Shown here: one piece after another, positions 16,578 through 33,078 of the stretch | Position numbering within the stretch: position 1 is the first letter of the stretch | Layout: each line of letters opens with the position of its first letter | Assembly (NCBI GenBank): GCA_963727525.1 | Contig: CAVSGO010000007.1 | Location: 480,001-544,000 of the forward strand | Direction: 5' to 3' | DNA from: an uncultured bacterium | GTDB taxonomy: Bacteria; Krumholzibacteriota; Krumholzibacteriia; LZORAL124-64-63 | Length of the DNA stretch: 64,000 nt | Notes under the pieces: model-generated | Told to the model about the DNA's origin: nothing | Databases searched by the model: none | What the model saw: only the letters and a program-made list of their open reading frames with translations | Program-made: the position numbers and the translations under genes

Positions 16578-17942
16578 GTGCAGACGATCCTGGTGGTCGA
16601 CGACGAGGTCGCGATCCGCGAAACACTTGCCCAGATCTTGTCCTACGAGGGGTACCGCGTCCGCACTGCCGCCGACGGTCCCCGGGCACTGGCCGACCTC
16701 CAGGACGAAACGGCCGACGTGGTGCTGCTCGATGTCAAGATGCCCGGCATGGACGGGTTCGAGGTCCTCGCGCGGCTGGGCCGCGACTGGCCCCGACTGC
16801 CGGTCATCGTCATCTCCGGTCACGGCGACATCAAGACCGCCGTCGATGCCGTCAAGCAGGGCGCATACGACTTCCTCGAGAAACCTCTCGACCGCAATCG
16901 CCTCCTGGTCACGCTACAGAATTGCCTCGCCCACAGCCGTGTGGAGCGCGATCGCGAACGGCTGGCGGCCAAGGCCGGGCGCCGCGCACCCCTGATCGGG
17001 GAGTGCCCGGCCATGCACCAGGTCCGCGCCTTCATCGAGCGCGCAGCTCCGGCCAGCGGCACCGTCCTCATCACGGGCGAGAACGGCACCGGCAAGGAAC
17101 TCGTCGTGGCTGCCATCCACGCCGCGAGCCAGCGTCGCAATGGTCCGCTGATCGAGGTCAACTGCGCGGCGATCCCGAAGGACCTCGTGGAGAGCGAACT
17201 GTTCGGGCACGAGAAGGGCGCGTTCACTGGCGCCGACAAGTTGCGGGTCGGCAAGTTTGAGCAGGCAGACGGGGGGACGCTCTTCCTGGACGAGATCGGC
17301 GACATGAACGAGCAGGCGCAGGCCAAGGTGCTGCGTGCCGTGGAGGAGGGGCGATTCCAGCGCGTGGGCGGGAACGAGACGCTGCGGGTCGACGTCCGGA
17401 TCGTCGCCGCCACCAACCGTGACCTCACGCTGCCGGAAACGGGTTTCCGGCGCGACCTCTACTTCCGACTCAACGTCCTGTCTACGCACCTGCCGCCCTT
17501 GCGCGAGCGCGGTCACGACATCGATCTACTGCTCGCGCATTTCATGGCAACCCTCTCCGCGAACCTCAAGGTCAAGGCGAAGACCTTCGCGCCCGAGACA
17601 CTGGCGATCCTGCGCGGGTATGCCTGGCCGGGAAACGTCCGGGAACTGCGCAACCTCGTCGAGCGACTACTCATCCTTACCCCGGGCGATACGGTGCGAC
17701 CGGGCGACCTGCCGCTGTTGCCGGGCGCCGGCGACGGAGGTAAGGGCGAGTGGGACCTGTTGCGTTGCGCGGATTTCCAGGAGTTCAAGTCACGATCGGA
17801 GGGGCTCTATCTCCAGCACAAGTTGCGTGAGTTTCACTACAACGTCAGCCGGACAGCGGAGGCTCTGGCCATGCAGAGAAGCAACCTCTACAAGAAGATC
17901 GCCAAGTATGGTTTGCAAACTCAACCAGAGGACGAGACATGA
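16578..17942 (+). CDS. sigma54-dependent response regulator (REC-AAA+-HTH, NtrX/NtrC-like)
   Basis: ILVVDDE, LLDVKMPGMDG, GENGTGKE, ESELFGHEKGAFTGA, FLDEIGD, WPGNVRELRN, Fis-type HTH; GAAGGAG RBS before GTG. Confidence 0.95.
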   Translation: MQTILVVDDEVAIRETLAQILSYEGYRVRTAADGPRALADLQDETADVVLLDVKMPGMDGFEVLARLGRDWPRLPVIVISGHGDIKTAVDAVKQGAYDFLEKPLDRNRLLVTLQNCLAHSRVERDRERLAAKAGRRAPLIGECPAMHQVRAFIERAAPASGTVLITGENGTGKELVVAAIHAASQRRNGPLIEVNCAAIPKDLVESELFGHEKGAFTGADKLRVGKFEQADGGTLFLDEIGDMNEQAQAKVLRAVEEGRFQRVGGNETLRVDVRIVAATNRDLTLPETGFRRDLYFRLNVLSTHLPPLRERGHDIDLLLAHFMATLSANLKVKAKTFAPETLAILRGYAWPGNVRELRNLVERLLILTPGDTVRPGDLPLLPGAGDGGKGEWDLLRCADFQEFKSRSEGLYLQHKLREFHYNVSRTAEALAMQRSNLYKKIAKYGLQTQPEDET

Positions 17943-18103: not shown

Positions 18104-18427
18104 ATGAAGGGAGTCCTCACCGTCCTTGTCCTGACGGCCGCCCTGCTCGTTGCGGCTTCTCTGGACAGCGGCGTTGCTCTGGCCGTCGTCGATGATGCGC
18201 CGCAGGGACAACCTCAGGGTATCGAAGTCCCGCACGGCGTACCGATGGTCATGGGTGACATGTCGGGCGAAGGCAACGAGGGCGATCCGGACGACATCGG
18301 CGGTGGTTTCCGTTCGTCGGGTTCCGGGATCGTCCACGACGTTCCGGATCCGCCTCCCGGCGGGTACGATCTGATGGATCATCTGGTCACTGTCTTTGCA
18401 CGATACTGGTTCCTCTACGTGCGGTGA
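18104..18427 (+). CDS. Small exported protein (107 aa), candidate signalling-peptide precursor
   Basis: Perfect TAAGGAGG RBS; signal peptide MKGVLTVLVLTAALLVAASLDSGVALA; acidic Gly-rich core GEGNEGDPDDIGGG; aromatic C-terminus VTVFARYWFLYVR. Confidence 0.8.
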   Translation: MKGVLTVLVLTAALLVAASLDSGVALAVVDDAPQGQPQGIEVPHGVPMVMGDMSGEGNEGDPDDIGGGFRSSGSGIVHDVPDPPPGGYDLMDHLVTVFARYWFLYVR

Positions 18428-18463
18428 GCCGGCGCCCGAGAACGCCGGCTCTTCGCTTCATTT
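18426..18463 (+). terminator. Hairpin or weak intrinsic terminator between the peptide gene and the activator
   Basis: GAGCCGGCG (18426-34) pairs with CGCCGGCTC (18443-51), followed by TTCGCTTCATTT. Confidence 0.55.
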
Positions 18464-18493
18464 CACGATCTGCGATCCACCACTCGCCAGGGG

Positions 18494-21400
18494 ATGCAGG
18501 TTATGGGCGATCGGTTTGATGGATTCGATAGCTATCCGCCGGGGCGCGAAGGAATTCGACGTACCGACGGGATAAGCGAGTATGAGCGGCTCGAGGAGGT
18601 CGGGGATCTCCACTTCCAGGCCGCCGCGTACTCGACTGCGCTCGATTACTACCGTCAAATCCTGCCTGCCGCGGTTCTGGACCGCTTCTCTCCTGCCCGC
18701 GCACTCGCTATCCTGCGCAAGGCACTCAACGCGCATCTCAATCTCGGGCAGATGAAACAGGTGGACGTACTTCTCGTCCGCGCGCACGCCGTGCTGAAGA
18801 ACGGGGTCGATCTCGCGCCGGCCGAGCTGGCACGGGAGCGCGCCCTGTTCATGGTGCGGCAGGCCGTCCTGCTGATGCAACGGTCGGACCATCAGGCGGC
18901 ACTGGACGTCGCGAAGCGGGCCTTCGCGATTCTCGCTCTGACAGATTTCCATGCCGAGGTCGCAAACCTCCAGCTCATCATGGGCGGTTGCCACCAGCGT
19001 ATGGGGCGACTCGACAAGGCGGAGGAGTTCTATCTCGACAGCCTGAGTACATTCCGCCGCGTGGGCGACGAGGTCGGCGCCGCTTCGCTCTATGGCAACC
19101 TCGCCCTGCTCTACAAGGTCCGTTGCTGCTGGGGCAAGGCCCTCGATCTGATGGACAAGGCGATTGCGCTCGTGGAGAAGCACGGCGCGCCGCAGCTCCT
19201 GACGGGATTCTTTCTCAACCAGGGCCTCGTCTATCTGAAGGTGGGGCGGTTCGCCGAGGCGCAGCTCGTGTTCGACAAGAGTCTGCGGCTCTGCCGGAGC
19301 CTGGGCGACCAGATCCGCGAACCCAAGGTCCTGCTGGCCCTGGGGCGACTGGAATTCCTCGAGGGGCGCCTGGCGCGGGCCGAGGAGACGGTGCTGGCCG
19401 GCAAGGCGCTCGCCGAACGTCTGCGGATGCGCCGCGAGTCCGTGATCGCCGACGAGTACTTCGGCGATATCCAGCTCGGGCGTGCTGATCCGCAGCATGC
19501 GCTGGAAACCTACGGATTCGGACTGGAGAAGAACCGCGGACTCGCGCACGCGGGCGACCTCGAGGCCGAACTCCTGCGCCGGGTCGCCGAGGCTCAGCGT
19601 CAGCTCGGTCACCACGCCGACGCCATCGCAACGGCCCACGCGGCCATAGCGGCCTGCGAGGCGAGCGGGGAAGTCTACGAGTTCGGTTTCTGCCGTCTGA
19701 CCCTGGCGCATGCCTACGCGGCACAGGGTGACTGGGAGCAGGCCGACGCGCATTTCCGGGGGGCGATCGACATCTTCCGCGGGCAGCATCTCGATCGCGA
19801 ATGGTGCGACACCGTGCTGCAGTACCTCGAGACGCGCCTCGAGTCGGCCGACAAGCCGGTCCTGCTCCTTTTGCGCCGCTTTCTCATCGACGCCCAGGCC
19901 CAGGCCGCGGCCGAGATCGGCGATGTCACCCTGTACGACTGCTTGCGCGGGCTCGTTCGGGTGCAACTTCGACTCGGACTCTTCGACGATGCTCTGCTTA
20001 CCGTATTCGAACTCGAACGCCACGCGCGCGGGCTCGACGATCCCGAGCGCCTCACGCTCGCAGAGCGCCTGCGGCAGGTGGTCGAGGCCGGCATGGTCGG
20101 GGGCCTCGAGGAAGCTGGATCCCCGCTCGTCGCGCTCTCCGGAATTCCCGGGCTCTTCAGTGCCGCGGACGGTTCGTTGACCCGTAACCTCGGATCGGTC
20201 CTGACGGCGGTGCGCGAGAAGGTGGGCGCGGATGTGGGATTCCTCGCCCTCGGGGAGCCCGGCAAACCGGCCACGTGGGGTCCCGCCGCGCGTCAGGGCG
20301 TGACGGAAAATCTCGTCGGGCAATTGCTGCGCTGGTTCGCCGATGAACGCAACCGGGATGGCGGGGATCAGGCACTCCTCGTGTCCCGGGTTTCGCGGCA
20401 CGCTGCCCTCGGCCGCGCGGTTCCGGCGCTGGCGGAGAACGTGGCGAGCTGTGTGTTCATGCCGATCACGGTGCACGACCGCGTGTTTGGGTTCTTGTTT
20501 CTAGGGCGCACCGTGGCCGAAGACGTTGCTTGTTTCGACCAGCAGGCCCTCGACTTCCTCGCGACGTACATGGGATTCCTGGCCCTGTTCCTGACCGACA
20601 AGATGCACCCTGCGGCCGAACCTCTGACCGCCTCCGAAGCCGATACGTTCGGTAACGTGATCACCCGCAACGAGCAGATGCTCGATGTGCTCTTGCTCAT
20701 CCGCAAAGTCGCGCCGAGCGATCTGACCGTGCTTCTGCGCGGCGAGACGGGGACCGGCAAGGGGTTGCTCGCCTACGCCCTGCATGCGCTCAGCCGCCGC
20801 AGCGAGCGCCGGTTCGTGGCGATCAACTGCGCCGCGATTCCTGAGACGCTGCTGGAAAGCGAACTGTTCGGTCATCTCAAGGGCAGCTTCACGGGAGCGG
20901 ATGTCGACAAGAAGGGGCTTCTCGTAGAGGCCGAGGGCGGTACGGTGTTCCTCGACGAGATCGGGAAGATGCCCCTCACGATGCAGGGCAAGCTGCTGCA
21001 CTTCCTCGACACGAAGGTGGTGCGCCCGGTAGGCTCCGCCCAGGAACGGGCGGTGGACGTGCGCATCGTCTGCGCCTCGAAATCCGATCTGCGGCAGCTC
21101 GTCGAGTCGGGACGCTTCCTCGAGGATCTCTACTTCCGATTGCTCGATTTCCCGATCGTGGTACCACCTCTGCGCGAGCGACCGGACGACATCCCGCTTC
21201 TCGCTGGCCACTTCGTGCAGCGGTTCGCAGGCGAGCTCGCGACCGAGGCGCCCGAGATCGGCAACGCGTGCATGGATGCTCTCGTCCAGTTCGACTGGCG
21301 AGGCAACGTGCGAGAGCTGGAGAAATGCCTGAAACGCGCCATGATCCTGGCGCAAGGCGAACCCGTACTGCGCCCGGATCATCTGCCGCGCGAGATGGTG

Positions 21401-21595
21401 CCATATCTCGCCGGAGGCGGTGGGGCCGACGTGATGCCACTTCGCGATATGCTGGCTGCCGTCGAGTCGCGTGAGATTGCGCGAGCCTTGCGCATGACGG
21501 CCGGCAACAAGGCGGCTGCGGCGCGCCGTCTTCAGATTTCCTATCCGAACCTTCTCAAGAAGATCCGCTTCTTCGGCCTCGCGGACGAGACCTGA
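18494..21595 (+). CDS. TPR-repeat + GAF-like + sigma54 AAA+ enhancer-binding protein with C-terminal HTH
   Basis: N-terminal TPR-like helices (e.g. ASLYGNLALLY...ALDLMDKAIAL, NQGLVYLKVGRFAEA); GAF-like segment (CVFMPITVHDRVFGFLFL); GETGTGK, ESELFGHLKGSFTGA, FLDEIG, WRGNVRELE; HTH GNKAAAARRLQISY. No receiver domain. Confidence 0.93.
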   Translation: MQVMGDRFDGFDSYPPGREGIRRTDGISEYERLEEVGDLHFQAAAYSTALDYYRQILPAAVLDRFSPARALAILRKALNAHLNLGQMKQVDVLLVRAHAVLKNGVDLAPAELARERALFMVRQAVLLMQRSDHQAALDVAKRAFAILALTDFHAEVANLQLIMGGCHQRMGRLDKAEEFYLDSLSTFRRVGDEVGAASLYGNLALLYKVRCCWGKALDLMDKAIALVEKHGAPQLLTGFFLNQGLVYLKVGRFAEAQLVFDKSLRLCRSLGDQIREPKVLLALGRLEFLEGRLARAEETVLAGKALAERLRMRRESVIADEYFGDIQLGRADPQHALETYGFGLEKNRGLAHAGDLEAELLRRVAEAQRQLGHHADAIATAHAAIAACEASGEVYEFGFCRLTLAHAYAAQGDWEQADAHFRGAIDIFRGQHLDREWCDTVLQYLETRLESADKPVLLLLRRFLIDAQAQAAAEIGDVTLYDCLRGLVRVQLRLGLFDDALLTVFELERHARGLDDPERLTLAERLRQVVEAGMVGGLEEAGSPLVALSGIPGLFSAADGSLTRNLGSVLTAVREKVGADVGFLALGEPGKPATWGPAARQGVTENLVGQLLRWFADERNRDGGDQALLVSRVSRHAALGRAVPALAENVASCVFMPITVHDRVFGFLFLGRTVAEDVACFDQQALDFLATYMGFLALFLTDKMHPAAEPLTASEADTFGNVITRNEQMLDVLLLIRKVAPSDLTVLLRGETGTGKGLLAYALHALSRRSERRFVAINCAAIPETLLESELFGHLKGSFTGADVDKKGLLVEAEGGTVFLDEIGKMPLTMQGKLLHFLDTKVVRPVGSAQERAVDVRIVCASKSDLRQLVESGRFLEDLYFRLLDFPIVVPPLRERPDDIPLLAGHFVQRFAGELATEAPEIGNACMDALVQFDWRGNVRELEKCLKRAMILAQGEPVLRPDHLPREMVPYLAGGGGADVMPLRDMLAAVESREIARALRMTAGNKAAAARRLQISYPNLLKKIRFFGLADET

Positions 21596-21672
21596 TCCCT
21601 GGAATCAACGATCGACGCCCAGGCATTGCCTTGCTGCCGCATGGAACGGATTGCGCCGCGGGGCTCCCAGGG

Positions 21673-21826
21673 TATAAATCTTTTTGTCATCCCAACTCAT
21701 TGTATCCAAGCGAGTTACGATTCGTGCGGGCTGATTGTAAATTCGTTTTATAGTGCGGCCCGGACACTCGCGCGCCAAAGCACTTTTCTGCTCTGCAACG
21801 TATTTTATTGTAACGACTTATAAAAC
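21673..21826 (+). promoter_or_regulatory. AT-rich sigma54 enhancer region: candidate activator palindromes and IHF-like sites
   Basis: TATAAA-N5-TTGTCA (21673-89) and TGTAAA-N5-TTTATA (21736-52), 63 bp apart; IHF-like ATACAA-N4-TTG (minus, 21693-705) and TTGTAA-N4-TTA (21808-20). Confidence 0.5.
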
Positions 21827-21845
21827 AGAATAGGTCTGCTGTTTC

Positions 21846-21861
21846 CGGCATGACTTCTGCA
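21846..21861 (+). promoter_or_regulatory. sigma54 (-24/-12) promoter
   Basis: CGGCAT-GACTT-CTGCA with GG (21847-48) and GC (21859-60) at the canonical GG-N10-GC spacing; predicted +1 near 21872. Confidence 0.65.
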
Positions 21862-21871
21862 GATAGGGGAT

Positions 21872-22186
21872 CCGAAGGGGTGAGTAGTAGGGAACGAACC
21901 CACTTCATGGAATCAAGATCGTGACTTGGAGGCGCGGAGCGGAGACTCGCGCATACCGGCAAACGCGGGAGACGTTTTCATCATGTAGGTTCGCAACGAG
22001 GACTTAAAGAGGTGGGGTCTTTACATTCCTCGAGTGCGAACGTGGAGAACGACCGCAACACGACCTTCAAGCACGATCTTGGTCTACGTAAGAATTTTGT
22101 GAGCGAAGGGCCCTGGTTGGTTCTGAATTGGCGAGATTCAGAACCAAGATGCCGTTCTCGGCGGCGAGGGCTCTTCGCTATTCTTT
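21872..22186 (+). ncRNA. Unassigned highly structured non-coding RNA (~315 nt)
   Basis: Nested helices read by hand: 21914-32/22064-81 (18 bp, one bulge); 21973-79/22045-51; 21989-95/22035-41; 21997-22002/22027-32; 22005-10/22018-23; 22102-14/22167-79 (13 bp); 22117-28/22136-47 (12 bp perfect). Followed by ATTCTTTGT; no credible ORF. Confidence 0.6.
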
Positions 22187-22452
22187 GTCCCCTCCGTTTC
22201 GCCGTCACCGGACGTGTGTTCCCCGGGTTGATCCCGCCGTCTCCAAAGATGGACGCTGTCCTCCGATCCGCACAGCCGCGACCCGATCGGCGACCGCACA
22301 TCGCGACCGTGACCGAGTACCTCATGGCCCAAGTGTCCGGATCCGGGTGTCATGGCAAGATCTTGTCTTATAGTGTTTTATACCGCGTATGAGCTCGGGT
22401 TGGCCTCGCTAGAAGGGCCGCCCCGACCCGGTATGGCGGCATGGGCCGGCGC

Positions 22453-22468
22453 TGGCACGAAGCCTGCG
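22453..22468 (+). promoter_or_regulatory. sigma54 (-24/-12) promoter for the lipoprotein/DUF4384 operon
   Basis: TGGCAC-GAAGC-CTGCG, GG-N10-GC, about 40 nt upstream of the ATG at 22510. Confidence 0.6.
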
Positions 22469-22509
22469 ATATGGTCGAGAAACACGAGGCGCCCTCGAGG
22501 AGGGAGATC

Positions 22510-23469
22510 ATGACTCGATCCGCAAGAATCCGGCACCGCGACATCGGCCTGCTGCCTCTGGGGTTAGCCCTCGCGCTGGCGTGGGCGCTATCGGGCTGCA
22601 GCAGTGATGATTGCGCCACGTGCGTCGAACCGGCACCCGTCGCTCCGACCAGCGTGTACTCGGAGAGCGGCGACAACCAGATCACGCTCTACTGGAGCGA
22701 TTTCGCCGAGATCTACAGCACCGTCGATCGCTACCAGGTCTTCAGCCGTTTCTACCAGAACGGCGACGAGAACGACCCGAACCGAACGTTCTATCTTATC
22801 GACGAGGTGGCCGTCGGCCAGAACTATGATCCCGACCTCCACCAGTACTCGTATGTCGACAATGCTGCGGACGTGGAGAACGGCGTCGACCTCGAGTATG
22901 CCGTGCGGGCGGTGTCGGCCTCGGGGCAGGCGGGCGATCTGAGCTACGAGCTGGTCATCGACACGCCGCTGCCGATGAGCGCGAGCCCCGTCGAGCTGTT
23001 CGATGCGGGCGGCGCCAATGGCAACCTCGGCGGCTTCGATTTCAGCCGGCTCGACAACGGGCGGGTGGATCCCAATGCCGTCGGAACCTCGGCCGACGTG
23101 AGGGTCGTATTCCGTGACGGCGTGCCATACCTCGAGGCCGTGCGGACCGAGGTGCATCTGCAGGATTTCGGTGTTTTCTCGGGCGGCAACGGGCAGCTCG
23201 ATTTCGCGGGGGTGTCCTGGGCACCGACCGATGGATATTCTGCGGCTGGTGTCCTCGAGATGATCGCCGGACACATCTACGTGGTCGAGATCACGAATGA
23301 ACCGGCCGGGGAGACCCACTACGCAAAGCTGGGCGTGACGAGCATCGTGCCAGCGACCCAGTCGGTCGAGGTGATGTGGGCCTACCAGCTCGTCAATGGT
23401 TTGCAGGAACTGCGTGTTCCTGACGAGCCGTCGCCGCGAGTGGACGAGTACGTCCCGATCAAGCTCTAG
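22510..23469 (+). CDS. Lipoprotein with FN3-like N-terminal domain and possible HmuY-like C-terminal domain
   Basis: AGGGAG RBS; lipobox ALSG-C; PVAPTSVYSESGDNQITLYW...EYAVRAV (FN3-like); HYAKLGVTSI...WAYQ. Confidence 0.8.
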   Translation: MTRSARIRHRDIGLLPLGLALALAWALSGCSSDDCATCVEPAPVAPTSVYSESGDNQITLYWSDFAEIYSTVDRYQVFSRFYQNGDENDPNRTFYLIDEVAVGQNYDPDLHQYSYVDNAADVENGVDLEYAVRAVSASGQAGDLSYELVIDTPLPMSASPVELFDAGGANGNLGGFDFSRLDNGRVDPNAVGTSADVRVVFRDGVPYLEAVRTEVHLQDFGVFSGGNGQLDFAGVSWAPTDGYSAAGVLEMIAGHIYVVEITNEPAGETHYAKLGVTSIVPATQSVEVMWAYQLVNGLQELRVPDEPSPRVDEYVPIKL

Positions 23470-23505: not shown

Positions 23506-25365
23506 ATGACACACAGGAATGCGGACCAGCAACGACATCGCGCGTTGGTGCCCGGCCACTCGCCGGTACCTGGATTCGCGATGGTACGGGGCCTCGTGGT
23601 GATCGCCCTCCTGGTGGTTGCGGCCAGCGTGGCGGTCGGCCAGCCCGAAACGGACAAGAGTGCCCCGGCGAACACCGCCGACGCGGCTGCGCGCTATGCC
23701 GCGCAGGACCTGCGCGTCAACGTATGGGTCGACAAGGGCGGCGATGAGGTATATCGCCGCGGCGAGCTGATGAGCGTGTCGTTCCAGGCCAATGCGGACG
23801 CCTACATCGTCGTCTACCGGATCGACGCGGATGGCCGCGTGGAGATCCTCTGGCCGATCAGTCGCTACAACGATGGCTTCGCCTTCGGTGGGCACGAGTA
23901 CACGCTACCGACGAATGGTTCCGATCGGCTACGCACGGCGAGCGACGAGGGCGTGGGCTACGTGCAAGTGCTTGCCTCGCGCTATCCCTTCGATCTGCGC
24001 GCTCTCGACGTCGATTTCCACCAGGAGCCCTCGCAGCCGATCCACGACTACTACGTGACCGGTGATCCGTTCCTGGCCATGAACGAGGTCAACTTCGCCA
24101 TCACCGGGCTCGATGACCCGGGCGAGTTCGTGGTGAGCAACTACGCTTCCTACTACGTCCACCGTCAGGTCGATCATCCGCGTTACCTCTGTAGCCAGTG
24201 TCACCTCAATGACGGCTATGCGGATCGTCCGTACGATGCGGTCTGCACGATCGAGATCCACCACGACTACGGCTGGGCCAACGACTGGTGGGACACCTAC
24301 CGCTACTATCCCGTGTACTACTACCCGGCGTTCTACTACGTCGATCCGTGGTGGGGATCGCCCTGGGTGTCGTACTGGTACCGGCCGTGGTATCGCTGGC
24401 CTCTGGCCGTGGGCATCTACGACTGGTCGTACACGTGCTACGACTGGCGCTACTCGCCCTACTGGCGGGGCGACTGCTACACGGTGTCGCGCGATCTGCC
24501 GCATCGTTACCGGCCGCTCGACAAGACCCGCGTGGCCGGCGTCGACAAGCATGAAGGAAATGTCGGTTCGCGGCTGGTCACGGCGCGGCGACCGGGAAAT
24601 GACGTGGTCGCGGCCATGAAGTCTCGCGAGGCCGTGCGTAGCGATCGGGTGCGCGACGCTGTACGGAAGAACGATGTAGTGGCAGGCGGCCGGACATACC
24701 GGGACGTGAGCCCCGAGTCGCGGTCGCAGGGAAAGTTCACGCGTGACGGCCAGGGACGGACCTCCCCTGGCCTGCGCGTGCCGGAGAGGGGCGGGAGCGG
24801 TACGGCGCGTGCCGGCGACCGGGGTTCCCGCCCCACCGCCGACCGGCCGATCAGCCCCGCCGGCGGTCGAAAAGTCCTCGGCCCCCGCGTGGAACCGGGC
24901 ACGCCGGATCGCAGCGAGCGAGTCCAGGATACCCGTAGCGGGCGCGAGAGCGGTACGAATCGCCAGACCGGTGACCGCCGAACCATCAGGCCGGTCGAGC
25001 CTCGTCAAGGCTCGGTCTGGTCGGGCCGACGCGGGTCGAGCTCGCGGGGTTCCGAGCCTGCCCGCCCGGCGGAACCGGCGCGCGGCGGTAGCAGTGGCAA
25101 ATCTGGCAGCAGCGGCTCGTCTGGTCGCGTGGAACGCCCCTCCTCGCCGAGTCGCAGCGAAGGCACGTCGCAGAACCGCGAATCCTCGTCCAGTGGCCGA
25201 AGCAGCCACTCGAGCGGCAGCCGCGGCAGTTCCGTCAAGTCTTCGGGGTCGTCGCGCGGATCGTCGCCGGCGCAATCCTCGGGCGGTTCGGCGCGCTCCT
25301 CCTCGGGTACGAGCCGCGGGAGCTCGGGTCGCAGCAGCAGCCAGACCAGGGGAGGCCGGCGCTAG
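23506..25365 (+). CDS. Exported DUF4384-domain protein with Tyr/Trp-rich middle and Ser/Arg/Gly low-complexity tail
   Basis: GGGAGG RBS; signal-like hydrophobic stretch; VWVDKG...YRRGE...DAYIVVYRIDADGRVEILWP (DUF4384-like); WWDTYRYYPVYYYP region; SSGSSRGSS tail. Confidence 0.82.
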   Translation: MTHRNADQQRHRALVPGHSPVPGFAMVRGLVVIALLVVAASVAVGQPETDKSAPANTADAAARYAAQDLRVNVWVDKGGDEVYRRGELMSVSFQANADAYIVVYRIDADGRVEILWPISRYNDGFAFGGHEYTLPTNGSDRLRTASDEGVGYVQVLASRYPFDLRALDVDFHQEPSQPIHDYYVTGDPFLAMNEVNFAITGLDDPGEFVVSNYASYYVHRQVDHPRYLCSQCHLNDGYADRPYDAVCTIEIHHDYGWANDWWDTYRYYPVYYYPAFYYVDPWWGSPWVSYWYRPWYRWPLAVGIYDWSYTCYDWRYSPYWRGDCYTVSRDLPHRYRPLDKTRVAGVDKHEGNVGSRLVTARRPGNDVVAAMKSREAVRSDRVRDAVRKNDVVAGGRTYRDVSPESRSQGKFTRDGQGRTSPGLRVPERGGSGTARAGDRGSRPTADRPISPAGGRKVLGPRVEPGTPDRSERVQDTRSGRESGTNRQTGDRRTIRPVEPRQGSVWSGRRGSSSRGSEPARPAEPARGGSSGKSGSSGSSGRVERPSSPSRSEGTSQNRESSSSGRSSHSSGSRGSSVKSSGSSRGSSPAQSSGGSARSSSGTSRGSSGRSSSQTRGGRR

Positions 25366-25616: not shown

Positions 25617-25645
25617 TTGACCCCCGCCCGGCGTGTTCTTATCAT
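25617..25645 (+). promoter_or_regulatory. sigma70-type promoter
   Basis: TTGACC-17 bp-TATCAT upstream of the M6-like/porV pair. Confidence 0.65.
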
Positions 25646-25697
25646 GGCCGGCACCTCGCATCGGACGGAATCCGACATCCCCGAAAGGTCCAGGTCG

Positions 25698-28600
25698 ATG
25701 GCAACCTCCGACCGCCGCGCCCGTTGCCCGTTTTCCATTGCTGGTCGCGCGTTCCTCGTTCTCCTCATCGCCGCTATGGTGGCGACCACCCTGGCGCGCC
25801 CGGTGCGGCCCGCGCCGCCGTCCAGGCTCCCGGTCGACGCGGTTCCCCGCTATGTCGACAAGTTCCGCCCGCTGCAGGACGACGGTTCGACCGGTCTGCA
25901 GCAGCGGCGACTCGCCGGCGAAAAGGCGCCGGCGATGTTGCACGCCATCGTCCTGATGTGCGACTTCGCCGACAGCGCCTTCTACGGGCGTCCGGGTCTC
26001 TCGCCGGAGGCACCGGCGACATCGACTCAGAGCGATTTCTACTACGCCACGCACGATTCCCTGTACTACGCCCACCAGATGCGAGACGTCAGCGACTACT
26101 TCACGGCCGTCAGCGATGGGCAGTTCGCGCTGACGCGCGACGTCCTGGGCACCATCGTGCACCTTCCGCATCCGATGGCGTATTATGGTAACGACCCGAC
26201 CGAAGGTGAGCAGACGGTGCTGCTGGCGGCCGATGTGGTGGCCGCCGTCGATCCGCTCGTGGACTTCTCGCTCTATGACACAGTCGTGCTCATCCATGCC
26301 GGTGCCGGCGAGGAGACCGACATCCTCGACAACTCGCCCGAACAGATCTACAGCACCTATCTGGGCCCCGAAGACTTCGCGGGTGCAGTGGACGACTCGG
26401 TCCTCACCACTCCCTACATCCCGACCGACGATCAGCCGGCAGGTACCGGTGTACAGAACGTGCTCGTGCTGCCAGAGAACGAATTCCAGGATCCGTATGG
26501 CAGCTTCAAAGGCTACTTCGGATCGCTCGGTGTGTACTGCTTCGAGGTTGGGCTGCGCCTCGGCATGCTCTCGCTCAGCGACTTCACACCCTCTGGCCAT
26601 CCGGACAGCCAGGGGATCGGCGAGTTCGGCCTGATGGGCTATGGGCTCTTCGTCGGGGCCGGCTTCATTCCGCCACATCCCATTGCGTTCAACAAGCTGC
26701 TGATGGGGTGGCTCGACCCCTTCCCGGTCGACCCGACACCGGGAGCGACCTGGACCCTCGGACCAGCCGAACACACGCATGGCGCCGACGCCTGCGCGCG
26801 CGTGGACATCACGGGGCGCGAATACTGGCTGCTCGAGTATCGCCTCCAGGATCCCGATGCGAACGGCATCTTCAGCTTCACGGGAGACCTGAACGGCAAC
26901 AACGTACCCGACTTCTACGATGCGGACAGTGCCTACGGCGATGGTCGACCGACGAGTTATTTCGATCCGGCCACGGATCAACGGGAGTGGCTCACCGGAG
27001 CCGAGTGGGACTTCTTCATGAGCGAGAACACCGCGCGGCCGGACGGTGTCAAGGGTGCCGGTAGCGGTATCTACATCTGGCACGTCGACGAGGGCGTGAT
27101 CCAGGCGGCTTTCGGAGCGGCGAGCAATCTCTTCAACGCCGATGCTTCGCACAAGAGTGTGGATCTCGAGGAGGCCGACGGCATCCAGGACCTGGACACG
27201 CGGCAATCATCGCCGTGGCTCCTGGGCGGTGATTTCGACAGTTTCCGGGGCGAGGATGCGCCCGTTTTCGGGCCTGCGACGCGTCCGTCCACGGAGACGG
27301 CGAATGGTGCGCGCACCGGCATCGTGTTCGATGAGATCTCCGATGTCGCCGACTCCACCTATACCTATCACGCCGGGACGGACTCCGCCTACACCGGCCT
27401 GCACTACGCCGACGCGATGGCGTTCCGCTGCCGTCGCGCCGAAGCGTTGGTGGGCGCACCGACCCTGGCGATGACGGCGCTTCTCGACGGGATCGATCTG
27501 GGCGGATGCCAGCCTCTCGCCGCCGACCTCGATCAGGACGGGGCGGGCCAGGAGGTGCTGGCCGTGGCCGCCGATGGTGCTGTTGTGGTGCTCGATCCCC
27601 CGTCTCCAGTTCCTGTGGTGCAGTACGTCGTGGATAGCGGTGACACGGTGCGTTTCCGGCAGCCTGCCGCGGCGGGGCGTCTGGCCGGTACGCCGACGAC
27701 CGGCGGGCTCGATATCGTGGTCGCCAGCGATCGCGGCGTGCACTGGCTACGATACGAAGGTGGCGTCGTCAGCACACAGGGCACCGATCCGACGGGACTC
27801 GTCACGGCTGGCGTTTCTTGCCCGCAGCCGGCCGTGCTCTGGCCTGCCGACGGCGGGGACGGCGATGGATTCGCCGCCGAGCGCCCCGTACAGATTCGCG
27901 CCGTGGACCGCCGCGCCGATGCGGATCATCTCACGGTGGCCGACGCGACGAGCGTGATCGCGGATCTCGCCGTCCCGGGAGGGCGTATCCAGGGGCCGCT
28001 CGTGGTCGCTGGCGGCCACCTGTGGGCCGCTGCCGCGGACACGGCGGCGGGTACGGCGGTGCTCCTCGTGCAGCCGCTGACCGACCCGCAGGCCGCGCCG
28101 GCCGTGGTCCCATTGCCGCTCATGCCCGGCACGCTGCCGCTGGCCGTGACCAGGCTCGGCACCGATTTCGCGGTGGCCATCGTCGATACGGGCGGACGCG
28201 CGGCCACCGCCTGGCTGGACGAGACCACGTTGCGTGAGTCGCATCCGATTCAGCTATGGGGACGAGATCTCGAGGTGCGCTCGCCCATCGGATCGGAATT
28301 CGCGTTCGTGGGCGGGGCCGTTTGCGGGCGAGCGGCGCCGACGGGGGTCTGGTCGCTGGGCTGGCCGCTCTGGCTTGCCGACCCCGTCGAGGCGGCGACG
28401 CGAGTCGAGCGGGCCGCGGTGCCGCTGGCCTTGACGGTGAGCGGTGCCGCTGGACCGGATGTCCTCTTCGTCAGCCGCGATGGCCGCCTGTTCCGCTGTA
28501 CGGCAGGCGGCGAGGTGCGCGCGGGCTGGCCTCTCGCGGGACCGGGCGAATCGGCGGGCACACCCGTCGTGGCCGATGTGGTCGGCGATGGCGGGCTCGA

Positions 28601-29084
28601 TCTGATCACCTTCGGCGCCTTCGACCGCATCGCAGGAATCGAGGCGGGGCAACTCGTCACACGGCCGGTGTCGCGGATTGAGGTCTTCACGGGGCTGGCT
28701 GATGTGGGCGTCATTTCCGTGATGTGGTCCGGGAATCCGTGGCGGGCGGACGCCCTGCTGGCGAGCGGCGTGGCCGCCCCCGGCCCTTCGGGGGCCGCGC
28801 TCGTGGCCGGCACGCATTTCTGTTATCCGAACCCACTGCGAGCAGGCCCATTGCACGTGCGCGGTCAGGCCGGTCAGGATGGCCAGGCGCGGGCGTGGTT
28901 CTACAACCTCGAGGGGGAGGAGGTCGCCGTCTCGCCGTGGCAAGGCGTGGTGGCGGCAGCACCCTTCGAGATCACGCTGGATCTCGGTACGATCGCTTCA
29001 GGCCTGTACGTGTGCCGACTCGAGGTCGAGAGCGCGCGTGGCGGCAGCGAGACGAGTGTCAAGACCGTCGCCGTGGTGCGGTGA
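25698..29084 (+). CDS. Secreted M6-like protein with degenerate zinc site, FG-GAP-like repeats and T9SS-type C-terminal domain
   Basis: M6 scaffold (IVLMCDFAD, LIHAGAGEE, GIGEFGLMGYG, KLLMGW, EYWLLEYR, GIYIWHVDE, VDLEEADG) but YCFEVGLRLGMLSLSD where HExxH is expected; C-terminal YPNP...ASGLYVCRL...VAVVR. Start approximate. Confidence 0.85.
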   Translation: MATSDRRARCPFSIAGRAFLVLLIAAMVATTLARPVRPAPPSRLPVDAVPRYVDKFRPLQDDGSTGLQQRRLAGEKAPAMLHAIVLMCDFADSAFYGRPGLSPEAPATSTQSDFYYATHDSLYYAHQMRDVSDYFTAVSDGQFALTRDVLGTIVHLPHPMAYYGNDPTEGEQTVLLAADVVAAVDPLVDFSLYDTVVLIHAGAGEETDILDNSPEQIYSTYLGPEDFAGAVDDSVLTTPYIPTDDQPAGTGVQNVLVLPENEFQDPYGSFKGYFGSLGVYCFEVGLRLGMLSLSDFTPSGHPDSQGIGEFGLMGYGLFVGAGFIPPHPIAFNKLLMGWLDPFPVDPTPGATWTLGPAEHTHGADACARVDITGREYWLLEYRLQDPDANGIFSFTGDLNGNNVPDFYDADSAYGDGRPTSYFDPATDQREWLTGAEWDFFMSENTARPDGVKGAGSGIYIWHVDEGVIQAAFGAASNLFNADASHKSVDLEEADGIQDLDTRQSSPWLLGGDFDSFRGEDAPVFGPATRPSTETANGARTGIVFDEISDVADSTYTYHAGTDSAYTGLHYADAMAFRCRRAEALVGAPTLAMTALLDGIDLGGCQPLAADLDQDGAGQEVLAVAADGAVVVLDPPSPVPVVQYVVDSGDTVRFRQPAAAGRLAGTPTTGGLDIVVASDRGVHWLRYEGGVVSTQGTDPTGLVTAGVSCPQPAVLWPADGGDGDGFAAERPVQIRAVDRRADADHLTVADATSVIADLAVPGGRIQGPLVVAGGHLWAAAADTAAGTAVLLVQPLTDPQAAPAVVPLPLMPGTLPLAVTRLGTDFAVAIVDTGGRAATAWLDETTLRESHPIQLWGRDLEVRSPIGSEFAFVGGAVCGRAAPTGVWSLGWPLWLADPVEAATRVERAAVPLALTVSGAAGPDVLFVSRDGRLFRCTAGGEVRAGWPLAGPGESAGTPVVADVVGDGGLDLITFGAFDRIAGIEAGQLVTRPVSRIEVFTGLADVGVISVMWSGNPWRADALLASGVAAPGPSGAALVAGTHFCYPNPLRAGPLHVRGQAGQDGQARAWFYNLEGEEVAVSPWQGVVAAAPFEITLDLGTIASGLYVCRLEVESARGGSETSVKTVAVVR

Positions 29085-29188
29085 CGACCAAGGTTTGGTT
29101 GCCGCGCGATCCGTCGCGGCGTAGAGTTGGACGCGGGAGAATGACAACGGGCGGCGCGTTCCGACCCGGACGCGAGAGGAATGGAACC

Positions 29189-30121
29189 ATGCGGTACTCG
29201 AAGATGAAGACGCTGATGGCTAGCCTAGCTCTGGTAGTGCTAGCCGCCGGGCCGGCGCTGGCGGGACATCCCGGCGACGCGGGTTTCCTGTCCCTGCGAC
29301 TGGGTGTCGGGGCGCGTGAGGCGGCCATGGGCGGGGCTGGTGTGGCCACGACCGAGGGAGCGTCGGCGGCCTACTGGAACCCGTCGAACCTGGCCTTCCT
29401 CGATCACGGCACCTCGCTGATGCTGCAGCACCATCGCTGGCTGGGGCTGTTCGACCACAACGCGGCGGCGGTGACTCACGTGACGCCTTCGGGTGTGTTC
29501 GGCGTGCTGTTCAGCGGCCTCTATGCCGACAACATCGATCGCTACGGCACGGAGCCCGTCGGCATCCCCGAGGGGACATTCGCGCCCTACGATGTGGTGC
29601 TGGGGGTGAGCTACTCGCGTCGGATCGGTGACGATCTGGCGGTGGGGCTGCAGGCGAAGATGCTCTACGAGAAGATCGATGTTTACAGCGATACGGGCTG
29701 GGCGTTCGACCTCTTCGTCACGCACAGGGCACCGATGATCCCGGGTCTCACGTTCGCGGCCAGCGCCACGAACCTGGGAGGCCAGATGACGCTGATCGAC
29801 GTGCCGTTCGATCTGCCGCGGACGATCACGGTCGGACTCGGCTACTCGCCCGAAACGGGAATTCTCGCGCAGCGCCTCACAGTGACCGGCGAGGCGGCGT
29901 TCCTGAACGACACGAACGAGAAGGCCCACCTCGGTCTCGAGGTGAAGGTGGTGCCGGAGCTCGCGCTGCGTGCCGGCTATCGTGTGAACTACACCTCGCA
30001 GGGGCTCACGGCCGGCGCCGGTTTCCGCTACAGCAACGTGGGCGTGAACTATGCCTACGAGGACATCACCGAGAATGGTCTCGACCCCGGCCACAAGTTC
30101 TCGCTGGAGTTCCTCTTCTAG
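29189..30121 (+). CDS. PorV/PorQ (UPF0164/FadL-like) outer-membrane beta-barrel
   Basis: Signal peptide; FLSLRLGVGAREAAMGGA...AAYWNPSNLA signature; LALRAGY; C-terminal HKFSLEFLF ending in Phe. Confidence 0.87.
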   Translation: MRYSKMKTLMASLALVVLAAGPALAGHPGDAGFLSLRLGVGAREAAMGGAGVATTEGASAAYWNPSNLAFLDHGTSLMLQHHRWLGLFDHNAAAVTHVTPSGVFGVLFSGLYADNIDRYGTEPVGIPEGTFAPYDVVLGVSYSRRIGDDLAVGLQAKMLYEKIDVYSDTGWAFDLFVTHRAPMIPGLTFAASATNLGGQMTLIDVPFDLPRTITVGLGYSPETGILAQRLTVTGEAAFLNDTNEKAHLGLEVKVVPELALRAGYRVNYTSQGLTAGAGFRYSNVGVNYAYEDITENGLDPGHKFSLEFLF

Positions 30122-30133
30122 AAGGCTCGGCGC

Positions 30134-30931
30134 TTATACGAGTGGGCGCGACACGGGCGGCGCCTGCGACCTTATCCCGGCCGGCTCGAAGACACGGCGT
30201 TCGAGCCGGCCGTTCTCGTAGATCGCATAGGTGGGCGACTCGAGCCACCCGCCCAGACCCATGAGCGAGTGCGCGCCGTGCGTGATCGTGAATGCGTGGT
30301 GGACGTGGCCCATGAGGAGCACATCCCACGGCGCGTGGCGTGCCGCGGCCTGGCGGAGGAAGCGAGTGGCCTTGGCCTCGATTCCCCGGGCCTCGTCGCG
30401 ATCGGCCATGCGGCTGTGTCCGCTGAGCCAGGTGCTGAGCGCGAAGAGCAGTTCCGGATGGATGGTCTTGGCGAGGCGGATGATCAGCGGATGGCGCACC
30501 AGCGCCCGGAACGTCCGGTAGAGCCACTCCTTGCCCAGCATCCCGTCGCCGTGCTGGCAGCGGATCCGCGTGCCGTCGACGTCGAGCGTGAAAGCCGCCC
30601 CACGCGGGTCGCAGCCATACCGGCGGGCCAGGTAGCCGGCGGCCCAGATGTCGTGATTGCCTCCCACGAAGTGGATCCGGGTGCCCGCCGCGTGGACGCG
30701 ATCGAGGGCGGAAAGAACTTTCTCGTAGCCTTTGAGCAGGAAGTGCGGATAATCGAACCAGAAGTCGAAAATGTCGCCGAGGAGCACGAGGTGCTCGGCG
30801 TGCTCGGCCATGGTGAGTAAAGCTATGAAGGCCTCCTGGCTGTCGCGTTCCCTGACGTCGGGGGTGACGTGGAAATGCGAGTCGGCCACGAAGAGAGCGC
30901 GGATCCCAATGCCATTGCTGTTGCGCGTCAT
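30134..30931 (-). CDS. lpxH: UDP-2,3-diacylglucosamine diphosphatase (LpxH-like calcineurin-type phosphoesterase)
   Basis: ADSH, LLGDIFDFW, GGNHD, HGD, MGHVH motifs. Confidence 0.8.
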   Translation of the reverse strand: MTRNSNGIGIRALFVADSHFHVTPDVRERDSQEAFIALLTMAEHAEHLVLLGDIFDFWFDYPHFLLKGYEKVLSALDRVHAAGTRIHFVGGNHDIWAAGYLARRYGCDPRGAAFTLDVDGTRIRCQHGDGMLGKEWLYRTFRALVRHPLIIRLAKTIHPELLFALSTWLSGHSRMADRDEARGIEAKATRFLRQAAARHAPWDVLLMGHVHHAFTITHGAHSLMGLGGWLESPTYAIYENGRLERRVFEPAGIRSQAPPVSRPLV

Positions 30932-31002
30932 GGAGCTAGATTCTTAGGGTAGTCGGCGCCATGCAGCAACCGGATTCTGGACAGAGGAAGAAGGACCAGC
31001 CC

Positions 31003-31446
31003 ATGTCACTCATGAACCGGGTGCGCAAGAACCTTCGCGAGTGGTACACGCTGGCCGCCGACCGTACAGGTGAGATGGCCAAGGTCTCTTCGCGCCGGTA
31101 TGACAAGTTCGGCCTCAGTCGCGAGATCGAGCGGCAGTTCTCGGAACTCGGGAGCTACGTGTACCACGCGATCGGCGAGGGGCGGGCGGCTTTCGCCGAT
31201 GATCCGGCCGTTGCCGGAATCGTGGCGCGTATCCAGGGGCTGGAGCGGGACCTCGAGGTGAAGGACCGCGAGATCGAGGTGATCCGGCAGACCCGGCAGC
31301 ATCGCGCTCCGGAGCCGGCCGGCGAGGGCGAGGCCCGGCCGACGGCTCCTGCGGCGGACGCCCCTTCCGCAGCACCATCGGCCGAGCCGATGGACGCGCC
31401 CGGACCGGCCGCCGATGATGATCTCGGGTCCGGGACCAAGGATTGA
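31003..31446 (+). CDS. Hypothetical coiled-coil protein
   Basis: AAGGA RBS; amphipathic helices (REIERQFSELGSYVY...RIQGLERDLEVKDREIE); Pro/Ala tail. Confidence 0.75.
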   Translation: MSLMNRVRKNLREWYTLAADRTGEMAKVSSRRYDKFGLSREIERQFSELGSYVYHAIGEGRAAFADDPAVAGIVARIQGLERDLEVKDREIEVIRQTRQHRAPEPAGEGEARPTAPAADAPSAAPSAEPMDAPGPAADDDLGSGTKD

Positions 31447-31471
31447 CATGGTCGGCTATCCCCTCTAAGAT
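31443..31471 (+). promoter_or_regulatory. sigma70-type promoter for degQ
   Basis: TTGACA-17 bp-TAAGAT. Confidence 0.7.
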
Positions 31472-31569
31472 GATCTCACCCCTACACGGTCGGGATGCGC
31501 CGGAAACCCACCCGACCGATACTCACCGCTTCGAGTGTGCTCCCCCACCCCACTCGCGATCGAGGATGT

Positions 31570-33078
31570 ATGCGCTCGTTTCAGCCTGGCATTGGCAGGA
31601 ACCGTCCGGCGACGCCATCGCGCATCGCGGTGCGCTCGCGCACCGGCGGGATCCTCGCGATCGCCTACGCGGCGACCCTGGTCGCCGTGATGCTGGTGCT
31701 GATTGCGAGCCAGGCCCGAGCGGCGGAACGGGCGCGGCCGGAGTCGCCGTTCGTGAGCGTGGGGCGTACGGTGCGCCCCGCAGTCGTCAACATCCGCATC
31801 ACCCGCGCCGTCAACGCCGCCGGTGTGGATCAGACGCCGTTGCAGGAGATGTACCGACGATTTTTTCCAGACAAGGCCGGTGAGGGGGGACGATTCGAGA
31901 ATCCCGGCACGGGGTCCGGCTTCGTGATCGATCCGGCGGGCGACATCCTGACGAACAACCACGTCATCGCCGGAGCTGATCGTATCTTCGTCCGCTTCTC
32001 GGGCTCCCGGCGCGAGTACCAGGCCACGCTCGTGGGCACCGATGCGAGCACCGACGTCGCCCTGTTGCACATCGATCCGGACGGCGCAAGCCTACCCACT
32101 CTCAAGTTCGGCGACTCGCAGACGCTGGCCGTGGGCGACTGGGCCATCGCCGTCGGCAACCCCTTCGGCAACCTGGAGGGGACGATGACCGTGGGCATCG
32201 TGAGTGCTGAGGGACGCGGCGATCTGGTCATCCAGGGCCTGACGCCGCGGTACCAGGATTTCATCCAGACCGATGCGAGCATCAATTTCGGCAATAGTGG
32301 CGGCCCCCTTGTCGACATCGAGGGCCACGTGATCGGCGTGAACACGGCGATCAACGCGGAGGGGCAGGGTATCGGGTTCGCGGTGCCGAGCCGGCTGGTG
32401 AAGCGCATCTACGAGCAGCTACGGGATCACGGTCGGGTGATCCGTGGATTCCTGGGTGTGAAGACCATCGATGCCGTGACCGCATTGGAAGCGACAGGTG
32501 ACGATGATGGCGCCCGGGTGGAATCGGTGGTCGCCGGGTCGCCGGCGGCCGCGGCCGGGTTGAAGCCGGGCGACGTGATCGTGCAGCTGGGCGACGAGAC
32601 CATCGAGTCGCGCCGACAGCTCGATTTCGTGGTCGCCGAAGCGCCGGTCGGGCAGGCCCTACCATGCCGGATCGTGCGAGGCGGCGATCGCCAGGATCTC
32701 TCGGTCACCCTCGTGGAACTCGACGCGGCGAGTATGCCGCCGCCGGCCGCGGACGAGACCTGGCTGGGGCTCACGGTCGCCGATCTTGCGGAAACAGACC
32801 ATCGCGTCGATCGTATAAAGGAAACACTAGGGATCGAGGCCACCAGAGGAGTGATCGTGGTGGCGGTGGAGAGCGGCCAACCCGCAGCGCAGGCCGGACT
32901 GCGCCCGGGCGATATCGTGGTCGCCGTCGAGGGTCAAGAAATTGCCGACCTGGCTGCCTACACGCGAGCGCGTGATGCGCTGCGGAGCCAGCGGGAACCA
33001 TTGACCTTTCTCGTGCGCACGGGAACCCGGGAGAATTTCGTGGAGGTCACTCCCCGGGAATCGGGATCCGTGCAATGA
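31570..33078 (+). CDS. Do/DegQ (HtrA) family serine endoprotease with two PDZ domains
   Basis: GTGSGFVI, TNNHV, DVALL, IQTDASINFGNSGGPL, two PDZ domains. Start approximate. Confidence 0.95.
   Translation: MRSFQPGIGRNRPATPSRIAVRSRTGGILAIAYAATLVAVMLVLIASQARAAERARPESPFVSVGRTVRPAVVNIRITRAVNAAGVDQTPLQEMYRRFFPDKAGEGGRFENPGTGSGFVIDPAGDILTNNHVIAGADRIFVRFSGSRREYQATLVGTDASTDVALLHIDPDGASLPTLKFGDSQTLAVGDWAIAVGNPFGNLEGTMTVGIVSAEGRGDLVIQGLTPRYQDFIQTDASINFGNSGGPLVDIEGHVIGVNTAINAEGQGIGFAVPSRLVKRIYEQLRDHGRVIRGFLGVKTIDAVTALEATGDDDGARVESVVAGSPAAAAGLKPGDVIVQLGDETIESRRQLDFVVAEAPVGQALPCRIVRGGDRQDLSVTLVELDAASMPPPAADETWLGLTVADLAETDHRVDRIKETLGIEATRGVIVVAVESGQPAAQAGLRPGDIVVAVEGQEIADLAAYTRARDALRSQREPLTFLVRTGTRENFVEVTPRESGSVQ

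Follow-up and report, generated by a model that had tools for sequence, protein, structure and literature searches.

A structured RNA beside a sigma-54 activator gene in Krumholzibacteriota and its possible feedback on the activator mRNA

Krumholzibacteriota are known from metagenomes alone. The window considered here, i.e. the whole 64-kb stretch of DNA that was analysed, comes from the genome of an uncultured member of the class Krumholzibacteriia (G000 below; f1 to f9 stand for families of this class, g for genera and L for loci). On its forward strand, between the gene for a large sigma-54 enhancer-binding protein (EBP) and an operon for surface proteins, positions 21872-22186 had been predicted to encode a multi-domain non-coding RNA starting at the +1 of a sigma-54 promoter. 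Folding, covariation, conservation and Rfam searches backed this prediction and, at the level of sequence, strongly support the conclusion that the element is a genuine folded RNA of ~315 nt, not described before and representing a new family. We further propose, tentatively, that this RNA may act in trans on the mRNA of the adjacent activator.

Fold, covariation and boundaries of the RNA

The minimum free energy (MFE) of 21872-22186 (+) was -144.1 kcal/mol, as compared with -101.7 ± 5.3 kcal/mol for 100 dinucleotide shuffles (z -7.97), none of which equalled it. The reverse strand also folded strongly (z -9.26), since helices are expected to fold on both strands. The RNA, its parts and its promoter region are as follows.

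21736-21752 (no strand): imperfect palindrome TGTAAA-N5-TTTATA, candidate activator site, ~100 bp 5' of the RNA promoter
21794-21828 (no strand): A/T-rich block resembling an IHF site, with conserved TAAC..TT..AAAA, between palindrome and promoter (~-40 to -80)
21846-21860 (+): predicted sigma-54 promoter of the RNA, -24/-12 element CGGCATGACTTCTGC, GG at 21847-48 and GC at 21859-60 (GG-N10-GC), from alignment
21872-22190 (+): structured RNA, ~315 nt, from fold, alignments and covariation
21874-21906 (+): P1, 5' hairpin with AGGGA in its loop, from the MFE fold
21918-22077 (+): central domain, made of closing helix P2/P2b, hairpin P3 and rod P4, matched by covariance model R1 (89.1 bits, E 1.7e-17)
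21955-21960 (+): P3 loop ACCGGC, from the family consensus
21973-22051 (+): P4 rod, ~80 nt, from MFE fold and consensus
22011-22017 (+): P4 apical loop GGUGGGG, from MFE fold and consensus
22101-22179 (+): 3' domain, in which the 13-bp helix P6 (22101-13 with 22167-79) encloses P7 and P8, from covariation
22115-22145 (+): P7, hairpin of 12-14 bp with loop GGCGAGA at 22130-22136, from alignment and covariation
22150-22161 (+): P8, hairpin of 4 bp, from alignment and covariation
22180-22190 (+): U-rich tail 3' of P6, weak in G000, from terminator scan and alignment

Most of the helices originally predicted by inspection were recovered. The MFE fold contained the 5' hairpin, the long helix closing the central domain (~21914-32 with 22064-81), the rod with its GGUGGGG loop, and a second domain in which a 13-bp helix encloses two hairpins, one long and perfect and the other of 4 bp, and is followed by the U-rich tail; all of these were also traced in the family consensus. 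The small hairpin with the loop CGGAGA did not survive: it was missing from the computed fold and corresponds to an alternative pairing seen in this genome alone. The family consensus has instead the helix pair P2b/P3, with ACCGGC in the loop.

In the consensus, P1 is followed by a variable linker, by the three-way junction of P2/P2b with P3 (ACCGGC) and the P4 rod (apex GAGGUGGGGUC), by the variable hairpin P5, not present in G000, and by P6, which closes a second three-way junction with P7 (GGCGAGA) and P8 and leads into a T-run. Independent MFE folds of 20 sequences gave the same architecture. The AGGG of the P1 loop was invariant, and the next A nearly so, among 49 f1 sequences, and P1 of the f6 form was unlike that of f1. 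The P7 loop GGCGAGA was invariant in 46 aligned sequences of the 3' domain. The P4 apex, otherwise invariant as GAGGUGGGGUC, read GAUGUGGGGUC in L162 (genome G021) and AAUGUGGGGUU in L164 (genome G007), which indicates that the conserved core of P4 is GUGGGGU rather than a Shine-Dalgarno-like GAGG.

Two ideas about these loops were considered and rejected by eye. A small ORF following the Shine-Dalgarno-like P4 loop was dismissed because no start codon lay at a consistent distance. An internal kissing interaction of UACC in the P3 loop with GGUG in the P4 loop was discarded because, in genus g2 and in two metagenome variants, P3 is replaced by hairpins lacking ACC while P4 is unchanged.

The fold was assessed on alignments of relatives, of which A2 holds 20 full-length copies and A3 their central domains; R1 describes the central domain with 163 positions and 51 pairs. 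In a plain MAFFT alignment of 20 central domains, 28 of the 51 pairs had changed on both sides and 89.1% of the cells were paired. When the 3' partners were slid, this value fell to 41-56%, and 0 of 500 shuffles reached the observed one. Fitting to the model, a procedure that biases the alignment towards the structure, yielded 47 of 51 pairs changed on both sides among 49 distinct sequences and 92.7% paired cells (42-57% with slid partners, again 0/500 shuffles). The 3' domain was aligned with MAFFT from 46 sequences, with both-sided changes in 28 of its 33 pairs and 85.7% of cells paired, as against 32-58% after sliding and 0 of 500 shuffles at the observed level. Compensatory changes by the dozen thus strongly back the predicted fold. 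The covariation tables also held many G-U pairs, which on the other strand would be A-C mismatches. These had been said to favour the + strand and do so; together with the promoter and the T-run, they assign the RNA to this strand.

The -24/-12 element puts the +1 at ~21872, ~12 nt 3' of the promoter. An alignment of 49 upstream regions showed no variation in the GG or in the TG of TGC and almost none in its C; the element stood ~12 nt before P1. RpoN is encoded in G000. The palindrome at ~-100 was kept in 17 aligned f1 loci, with the consensus T(G/A)TAAA-N5-TTTA(C/T)A. IHF may bind the A/T-rich block; such IHF-site-like blocks are usual in sigma-54 promoter architecture. At the other end, a terminator scan picked out the final stem with its tail, and the stem plus T-run after P6 was conserved in the alignments; most relatives have 5-9 consecutive T here, whereas the tail is weak in G000. 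Several relatives also have a separate hairpin and T-run at the end of the activator gene itself. The RNA would accordingly be a discrete unit with its own predicted terminator.

Distribution and genomic setting

No Rfam family matched at its gathering score anywhere in the 64-kb window, in line with the original prediction that the RNA belongs to no known family. A search of 21550-22500 with E values up to 10 returned two weak matches, neither of them inside the RNA element. The covariance models of Qrr, CrcZ, GlmY/GlmZ and all other Rfam families were unmatched. 6S RNA, a long unbranched rod interrupted by a central bubble, was also considered and rejected, since two three-way junctions are present in the consensus and the Rfam 6S models did not match.

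The element occurs once in G000, and BLAST returned weak collinear matches in two other genera. A 22-nt motif from the 5' hairpin, allowed up to 3 mismatches, was found in 23 of the 91 genomes of the order, versus one match for the reversed control pattern. In a species-representative collection it had 17 exact matches, mostly in metagenome-assembled genomes of Candidatus Krumholzibacteriota or Krumholzibacteriia. A three-part loop pattern led to 35 metagenome loci, 34 of which matched R1. Altogether R1 matched 54 of the 58 sources searched; the four misses (L012 and L030, which are 3-mismatch matches, L041 and L083) are suspected false pattern matches and were set aside.

Within the order, 72 of 91 genomes held a single R1 match each; counted otherwise, the RNA was present in 48 of the 55 genomes of good quality and in 24 of the 28 genera. 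An even sampling of the class (151 genomes) gave matches in 37 of 43 f1 genomes and in 9 of 10 f6 genomes, and in none of 97 from the seven other families. Three f1 genomes missed by R1 under stricter filters do have the RNA, with a slightly changed P4 loop.

Divergent forms appeared when 13 loci were sampled from the seven R1-negative families. In 8 of them, a full-length activator gene was followed by a gap of 700-1100 nt and then by the lipoprotein gene; these eight gaps belong to f2, f3, f4, f7, f8 and f9. The GGUGGGG loop motif was kept in all of them but the f2 gap, i.e. in seven. Seven of the eight also had a recognizable sigma-54 promoter for the RNA, five by the strict pattern and two, in f7 and f9, by eye as TGGAAC-N5-TTGC; the f3 gap of L138 has TTGA where TTGC is expected. 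GGCGAGA was kept in f3, f7 and f9, was present as GGCGAG in f2, and was not found in f4 and f8. As the phylum has one class in the NCBI taxonomy, the locus with its predicted RNA looks phylum-wide, in at least three structural forms.

The f4/f8 variant (L135, L136, L140, L148-L160) is an RNA of ~270-330 nt located just 3' of the first sigma-54 promoter. It starts with a hairpin GGAAGU..ACUUCC whose loop is UCCCGUGCGU, and both GGCGAGA and CUCGCC are missing from these families.

The genes and sites around the RNA are the following.

16578-17942 (+): response-regulator sigma-54 activator of NtrC type, the second EBP of the locus (Pfam Response_reg, Sigma54_activat, HTH_8)
18494-21595 (+): large sigma-54 EBP, 1033 aa, with TPR repeats, GAF, the AAA+ sigma-54 interaction domain and a Fis-type HTH (Pfam)
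22257-22274 (no strand): palindrome TGTCC-N8-GCACA, candidate enhancer of the downstream promoter, from conservation
22453-22467 (+): second predicted sigma-54 promoter TGGCACGAAGCCTGC, serving the surface-protein operon, from alignment
22510-23469 (+): lipoprotein-like protein, 319 aa, start set by alignment
23506-25365 (+): DUF4384 protein (Pfam), syntenic
25617-29084 (+): M6-metalloprotease-like protein (NCBIfam T9SS-dependent M6-like inactivated metalloprotease, 177 bits, below the cut-off of 600)
28724-30121 (+): PorV/PorQ-family outer-membrane protein (NCBIfam PorV_fam, 157.9 bits versus a cut-off of 90); its real start probably lies after 29084, unlike that of the listed ORF

Wherever a related locus offered enough flank, the large EBP gene, whose likely start codon is ATG 18503, directly adjoined the RNA on its 5' side, and the order activator, RNA, lipoprotein, DUF4384 and M6-like protein was kept. 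In many related loci a second EBP match stood 5' of the large one. Between the two activator genes is a small ORF of ~107 aa with a signal-peptide-like start (18105-18427, +). It is followed at ~18428-18455 by a terminator-like hairpin, ~45 nt before the start of the large activator gene, so that the promoter of this gene is not obvious. The 319-aa lipoprotein-like protein matched no Pfam or NCBIfam family; homologues were found in 134 of 151 genomes of the class, in all nine families. A DegP/HtrA protease is encoded further along the operon (operon stretch 25617-33078, +), and the association of the M6-like, PorV/PorQ and DegP/HtrA proteins suggests a surface module linked to type IX secretion and under sigma-54 control.

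From the terminator of the RNA to the operon one meets, in order, the palindrome, an A/T-rich block and the second sigma-54 promoter. A form of this palindrome (TGTCC-N8-GGACA, 0-2 mismatches) was present ~160-220 bp 5' of the operon promoter in most of the 52 loci scanned, and the TGGCAC-N5-TGC of the promoter was kept in 20 of 20 aligned loci, ~45-60 nt before the start codon of the lipoprotein. The interposition of a palindrome and a promoter indicates that the RNA is no simple operon leader. One of the two weak Rfam matches, to Termite-flg RNA (22371-22462, +; 16.6 bits versus a gathering score of 40, E 4.1), overlaps this second promoter and probably reflects merely promoter-like sequence.

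Possible feedback on the activator mRNA

We hypothesized that the RNA acts in trans and feeds back on the mRNA of the large activator, a proposal that we regard as the best explanation at hand while thinking it somewhat more probably wrong than right. An EBP of the locus would switch on the promoter at 21846-21860. The transcript would fold into its 5' hairpin, its three-way central domain and its three-way 3' domain and stop at its own terminator, and the same signal would switch on the separately promoted surface-protein operon downstream. The P7 loop GGCGAGA would then kiss the CUCGCC loop of a leader hairpin that is predicted to hide the ribosome-binding site of the activator, and the G-rich P4 loop GGUGGGG could pair with the anti-Shine-Dalgarno arm of the same hairpin. 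Opening of the hairpin, hence more activator and positive feedback, would be a likelier outcome than a block of the ribosome and negative feedback. From the observed RNA gene, structure, promoter and terminator signals, synteny and complementarities we infer which activator would drive the RNA, that the pairing would occur and in which direction it would work.

18474-18505 (+): leader of the large EBP mRNA, predicted hairpin in which the Shine-Dalgarno GGGG (18490-18493) is paired with AUCCACC and CUCGCC (18483-18488) lies in the loop

The only conserved block of the leader, YCCRCY-N-CUCGCC-RGGGG, is found directly before the start codon. CTCGCC stood just 5' of the Shine-Dalgarno sequence of the activator in 32 of 32 loci of f1, f6 and f2, and in two of three further f1 loci. 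In predicted leader folds the Shine-Dalgarno sequence was mostly paired (27/33) and CUCGCC mostly unpaired (22/33). CUCGCC is the complement of GGCGAG within the P7 loop, and GGUGGG, in the P4 loop, offers a possible partner for the Y-rich arm. The loop-masked duplex energy between the RNA and the activator leader was lower than in shuffles (mean z -2.03, n = 27), and 26 of these 27 duplexes used the P4 or the P7 loop. Applied to the region where the adjacent operon starts, this test gave no signal (mean z -0.14, n = 26), and pairing with that region was rejected as a candidate; one genus shows a weak match of its P1 loop there (-9.5 kcal/mol).

A different contact was observed in f4 and f8. 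There, 9-10 nt of the 5'-hairpin loop UCCCGUGCGU were complementary to codons 3-6 of the activator (ACGCACGGGA) in 15 of 15 loci, and the Ala (GCA) and Arg (CGG) codons among them were identical in all 15. In f3, UCGCC was seen by eye in or at the hairpin loop of both leaders. An apparent compensatory insertion in f4, between a leader loop (CUAG/CUUAG) and an RNA segment (CUAG/CUAAG), was noticed by eye in two loci only and was abandoned as it failed in six more f4 loci.

Several points weigh against this feedback. The complementarity is 6-7 nt only, and CTCGCC is a common word, with 155 occurrences on both strands of the window (~1 per 830 nt per strand); the chance of meeting it in the 25-nt leader of one genome is ~3%, in a comparison that covered several loops and two targets. 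Neither partner varies, which leaves no compensatory change by which to test the pairing. The duplex score of G000 itself was no better than that of shuffles (z 0.05). Three A+T-rich lineages, namely genus g22 of f1 and the families f7 and f9, kept the GGCGAGA loop with a leader devoid of CUCGCC. The GUGGGGU core is kept class-wide, whereas the arm proposed to pair with it is Y-rich, holds little information and must in any case pair with the Shine-Dalgarno sequence. As to f4 and f8, 10-mers arose in shuffled controls as well (maximum 10-13 in 200 shuffles), and the mRNA side is also coding sequence. Because the RNA promoter and the operon promoter have unlike palindromes, each may be controlled by a different one of the two activators encoded at the locus. 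Both ends of the RNA, and its expression, are deduced solely from signals in the sequence. Finally, a 315-nt fold with several junctions far exceeds the needs of an antisense RNA with two loops.

The proposal can be extended to a stronger form, in which the RNA would be an Hfq-independent, two-loop anti-antisense RNA whose GGUGGGG and GGCGAGA loops invade the leader hairpin of the activator and close an all-or-none positive-feedback switch, committing the cell to the PorV/PorQ-linked surface module. Throughout the phylum, RNA and activator mRNA would have stayed linked, but by a rewired contact: in f1, f6, f2 and probably f3 the P7 loop would meet the leader loop, whereas in f4 and f8 the 5'-hairpin loop would meet codons 3-6. 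In this complete form we consider the idea unlikely. The remaining, elaborate part of the fold may add a sensing or protein-binding function.

Alternative functions and relation to known systems

We considered the possibility that the RNA works as a ribonucleoprotein or protein-binding RNA, its invariant loops (GGUGGGG, GGCGAGA and ACCGGC) and its fold binding or sequestering a conserved protein other than CsrA or having a tertiary activity of their own, and that the match with the leader is incidental. This is kept as the main rival because of the excess of the fold over antisense needs noted above, its two three-way junctions included, and we rate it as somewhat unlikely though well worth weighing. 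It is consistent with the persistence of the GUGGGGU core in all nine families even where the rest has diverged beyond the reach of R1, with the retention of loops in lineages lacking the leader motif, and with the failure to find Hfq in G000, a genome that is 96.7% complete. Yet no candidate partner was identified, the proteins encoded nearby being exported or membrane proteins, and 12 of the 80 unpaired columns of the central domain reach at least 90% conservation, which argues against a broad core of conserved junction nucleotides.

Base-pairing with other mRNAs, e.g. those of envelope proteins, would make the RNA the repressing arm of a regulon and dispense with feedback on the activator. 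Such is the general design of those envelope regulons that include a small-RNA arm, as exemplified by MicA and RybB, small RNAs of the sigma-E regulon. The invariant single-stranded loops and the proximity of the gene to the surface-protein, PorV/PorQ and DegP cluster would fit such a role. The single other target tested, however, was the start of the adjacent operon, which gave the null result reported above, and we judge this explanation distinctly unlikely.

Could the element be a cis-acting leader or attenuator governing read-through from the first promoter into the operon? It lies on the same strand as the operon and in the same order, and its terminator has a weak T-run in G000 (ATTCTTTGTCC). 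Against this stand the conserved palindrome, A/T-rich block and second sigma-54 promoter that separate the terminator from the first gene, the 250-400 nt that remain to the start codon, the strong T-run of most relatives and the lack of any match to Rfam riboswitches; a leader role is accordingly improbable.

The original prediction had pointed to sequestration of a CsrA/RsmA-type protein, on the basis of nine GGA trinucleotides counted in 21868-22046. The count was correct; the enrichment that it was taken to signal was not found. The RNA contains 8 GGA, versus 7.3 ± 2.2 expected from 2000 mononucleotide shuffles, and only one GGA is conserved in a loop, that of P1, within f1 only, since it is missing from the f6 form. 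The high-affinity CsrA site is RUACARGGAUGU, and the P1 loop of most f1 members, UUACAGGGAU, resembles it; CsrA is, moreover, present in G000 and in 43 of 43 sampled f1 genomes. Nonetheless, the single csrA of G000 (L048, G000:C7:1011164-1014316) lies directly 3' of fliW, a pairing that is of the flagellar type, and CsrA was not found in several lineages that bear the RNA: in genus g32 all 5 genomes carry the RNA and CsrA was found in none of them, and no CsrA was found in the f4 (0/23) and f8 (0/13) genomes, i.e. 0 of 36, although their loci hold the variant RNA. A CsrA sponge was therefore rejected as highly improbable on the grounds of GGA count, fliW pairing and CsrA-less lineages.

That there is no RNA gene at all, conservation being due to DNA-level sites or to a small protein-coding gene, is barely credible: the region does lie between two enhancer-dependent promoters and folds strongly on both strands, but pairing survives changes on both sides, the G-U pairs work on the + strand only, indels change the length by other than multiples of three, and the listed ORFs are long alternative-frame ORFs of the sort common in G+C-rich DNA.

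The regulatory kind to which the RNA belongs is known, namely a sigma-54- and EBP-dependent small RNA encoded beside the gene of its activator; what is new is the sequence family. A full-text literature search on non-coding RNAs of Krumholzibacteria found no paper, and nothing relevant was present among the matches listed for Krumholzibacteriota and sigma-54.

The Qrr RNAs of Vibrio are roughly 100 nt long; their promoters are of the sigma-54 type, qrr1 adjoins luxO, and luxO mRNA is one among several targets. One article (PMC3262071) describes phospho-LuxO as the regulator of all qrr genes, the pairing of Qrr with luxO mRNA and the Hfq dependence of the Qrr RNAs. The feedback on the activator mRNA proposed here would resemble this system in that an activator-controlled small RNA pairs with the mRNA of its own activator. 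It differs in that Qrr RNAs use linear seed regions, whereas the RNA described here, with its ~315 nt and two three-way junctions, would use hairpin loops.

CrcZ, in Pseudomonas, is ~400 nt long and has repeated A-rich motifs. According to passages of PMC5113210, its gene is immediately 3' of cbrB, its promoter depends on RpoN and CbrB, and it sequesters Hfq/Crc. The promoter type, the place beside the activator gene and the size are similar to those of CrcZ/CrcY and CbrB; unlike CrcZ, the present RNA has no repeated motif, its conserved loops are all unlike each other, and Hfq was not found in G000.

Anti-antisense activation, as by DsrA, RprA and ArcZ on rpoS and by Qrr on aphA, is a mechanism listed in PMC3262071. 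The likeness would be the proposed pairing with a leader hairpin, at its upstream arm or its loop, by which a ribosome-binding site is hidden. Those RNAs are Hfq-dependent and linear, whereas here two hairpin loops would address adjacent sites and the target would be the RNA's own activator.

Among the non-coding features of Krumholzibacteriota, the RNA ranks with the best conserved; it is single-copy and fixed in place, and it is tied to the sigma-54 switch for an operon related to the surface and to secretion. It would be a large, Hfq-independent addition to the few sigma-54-dependent small RNAs. Alignments A2-A6 and model R1 provide the material for a new Rfam family. If the feedback on the activator mRNA is true, the families of this phylum would offer a natural series of variants that connect RNA and activator in the same way by different contacts, and the evolution of such an interface could be tested.

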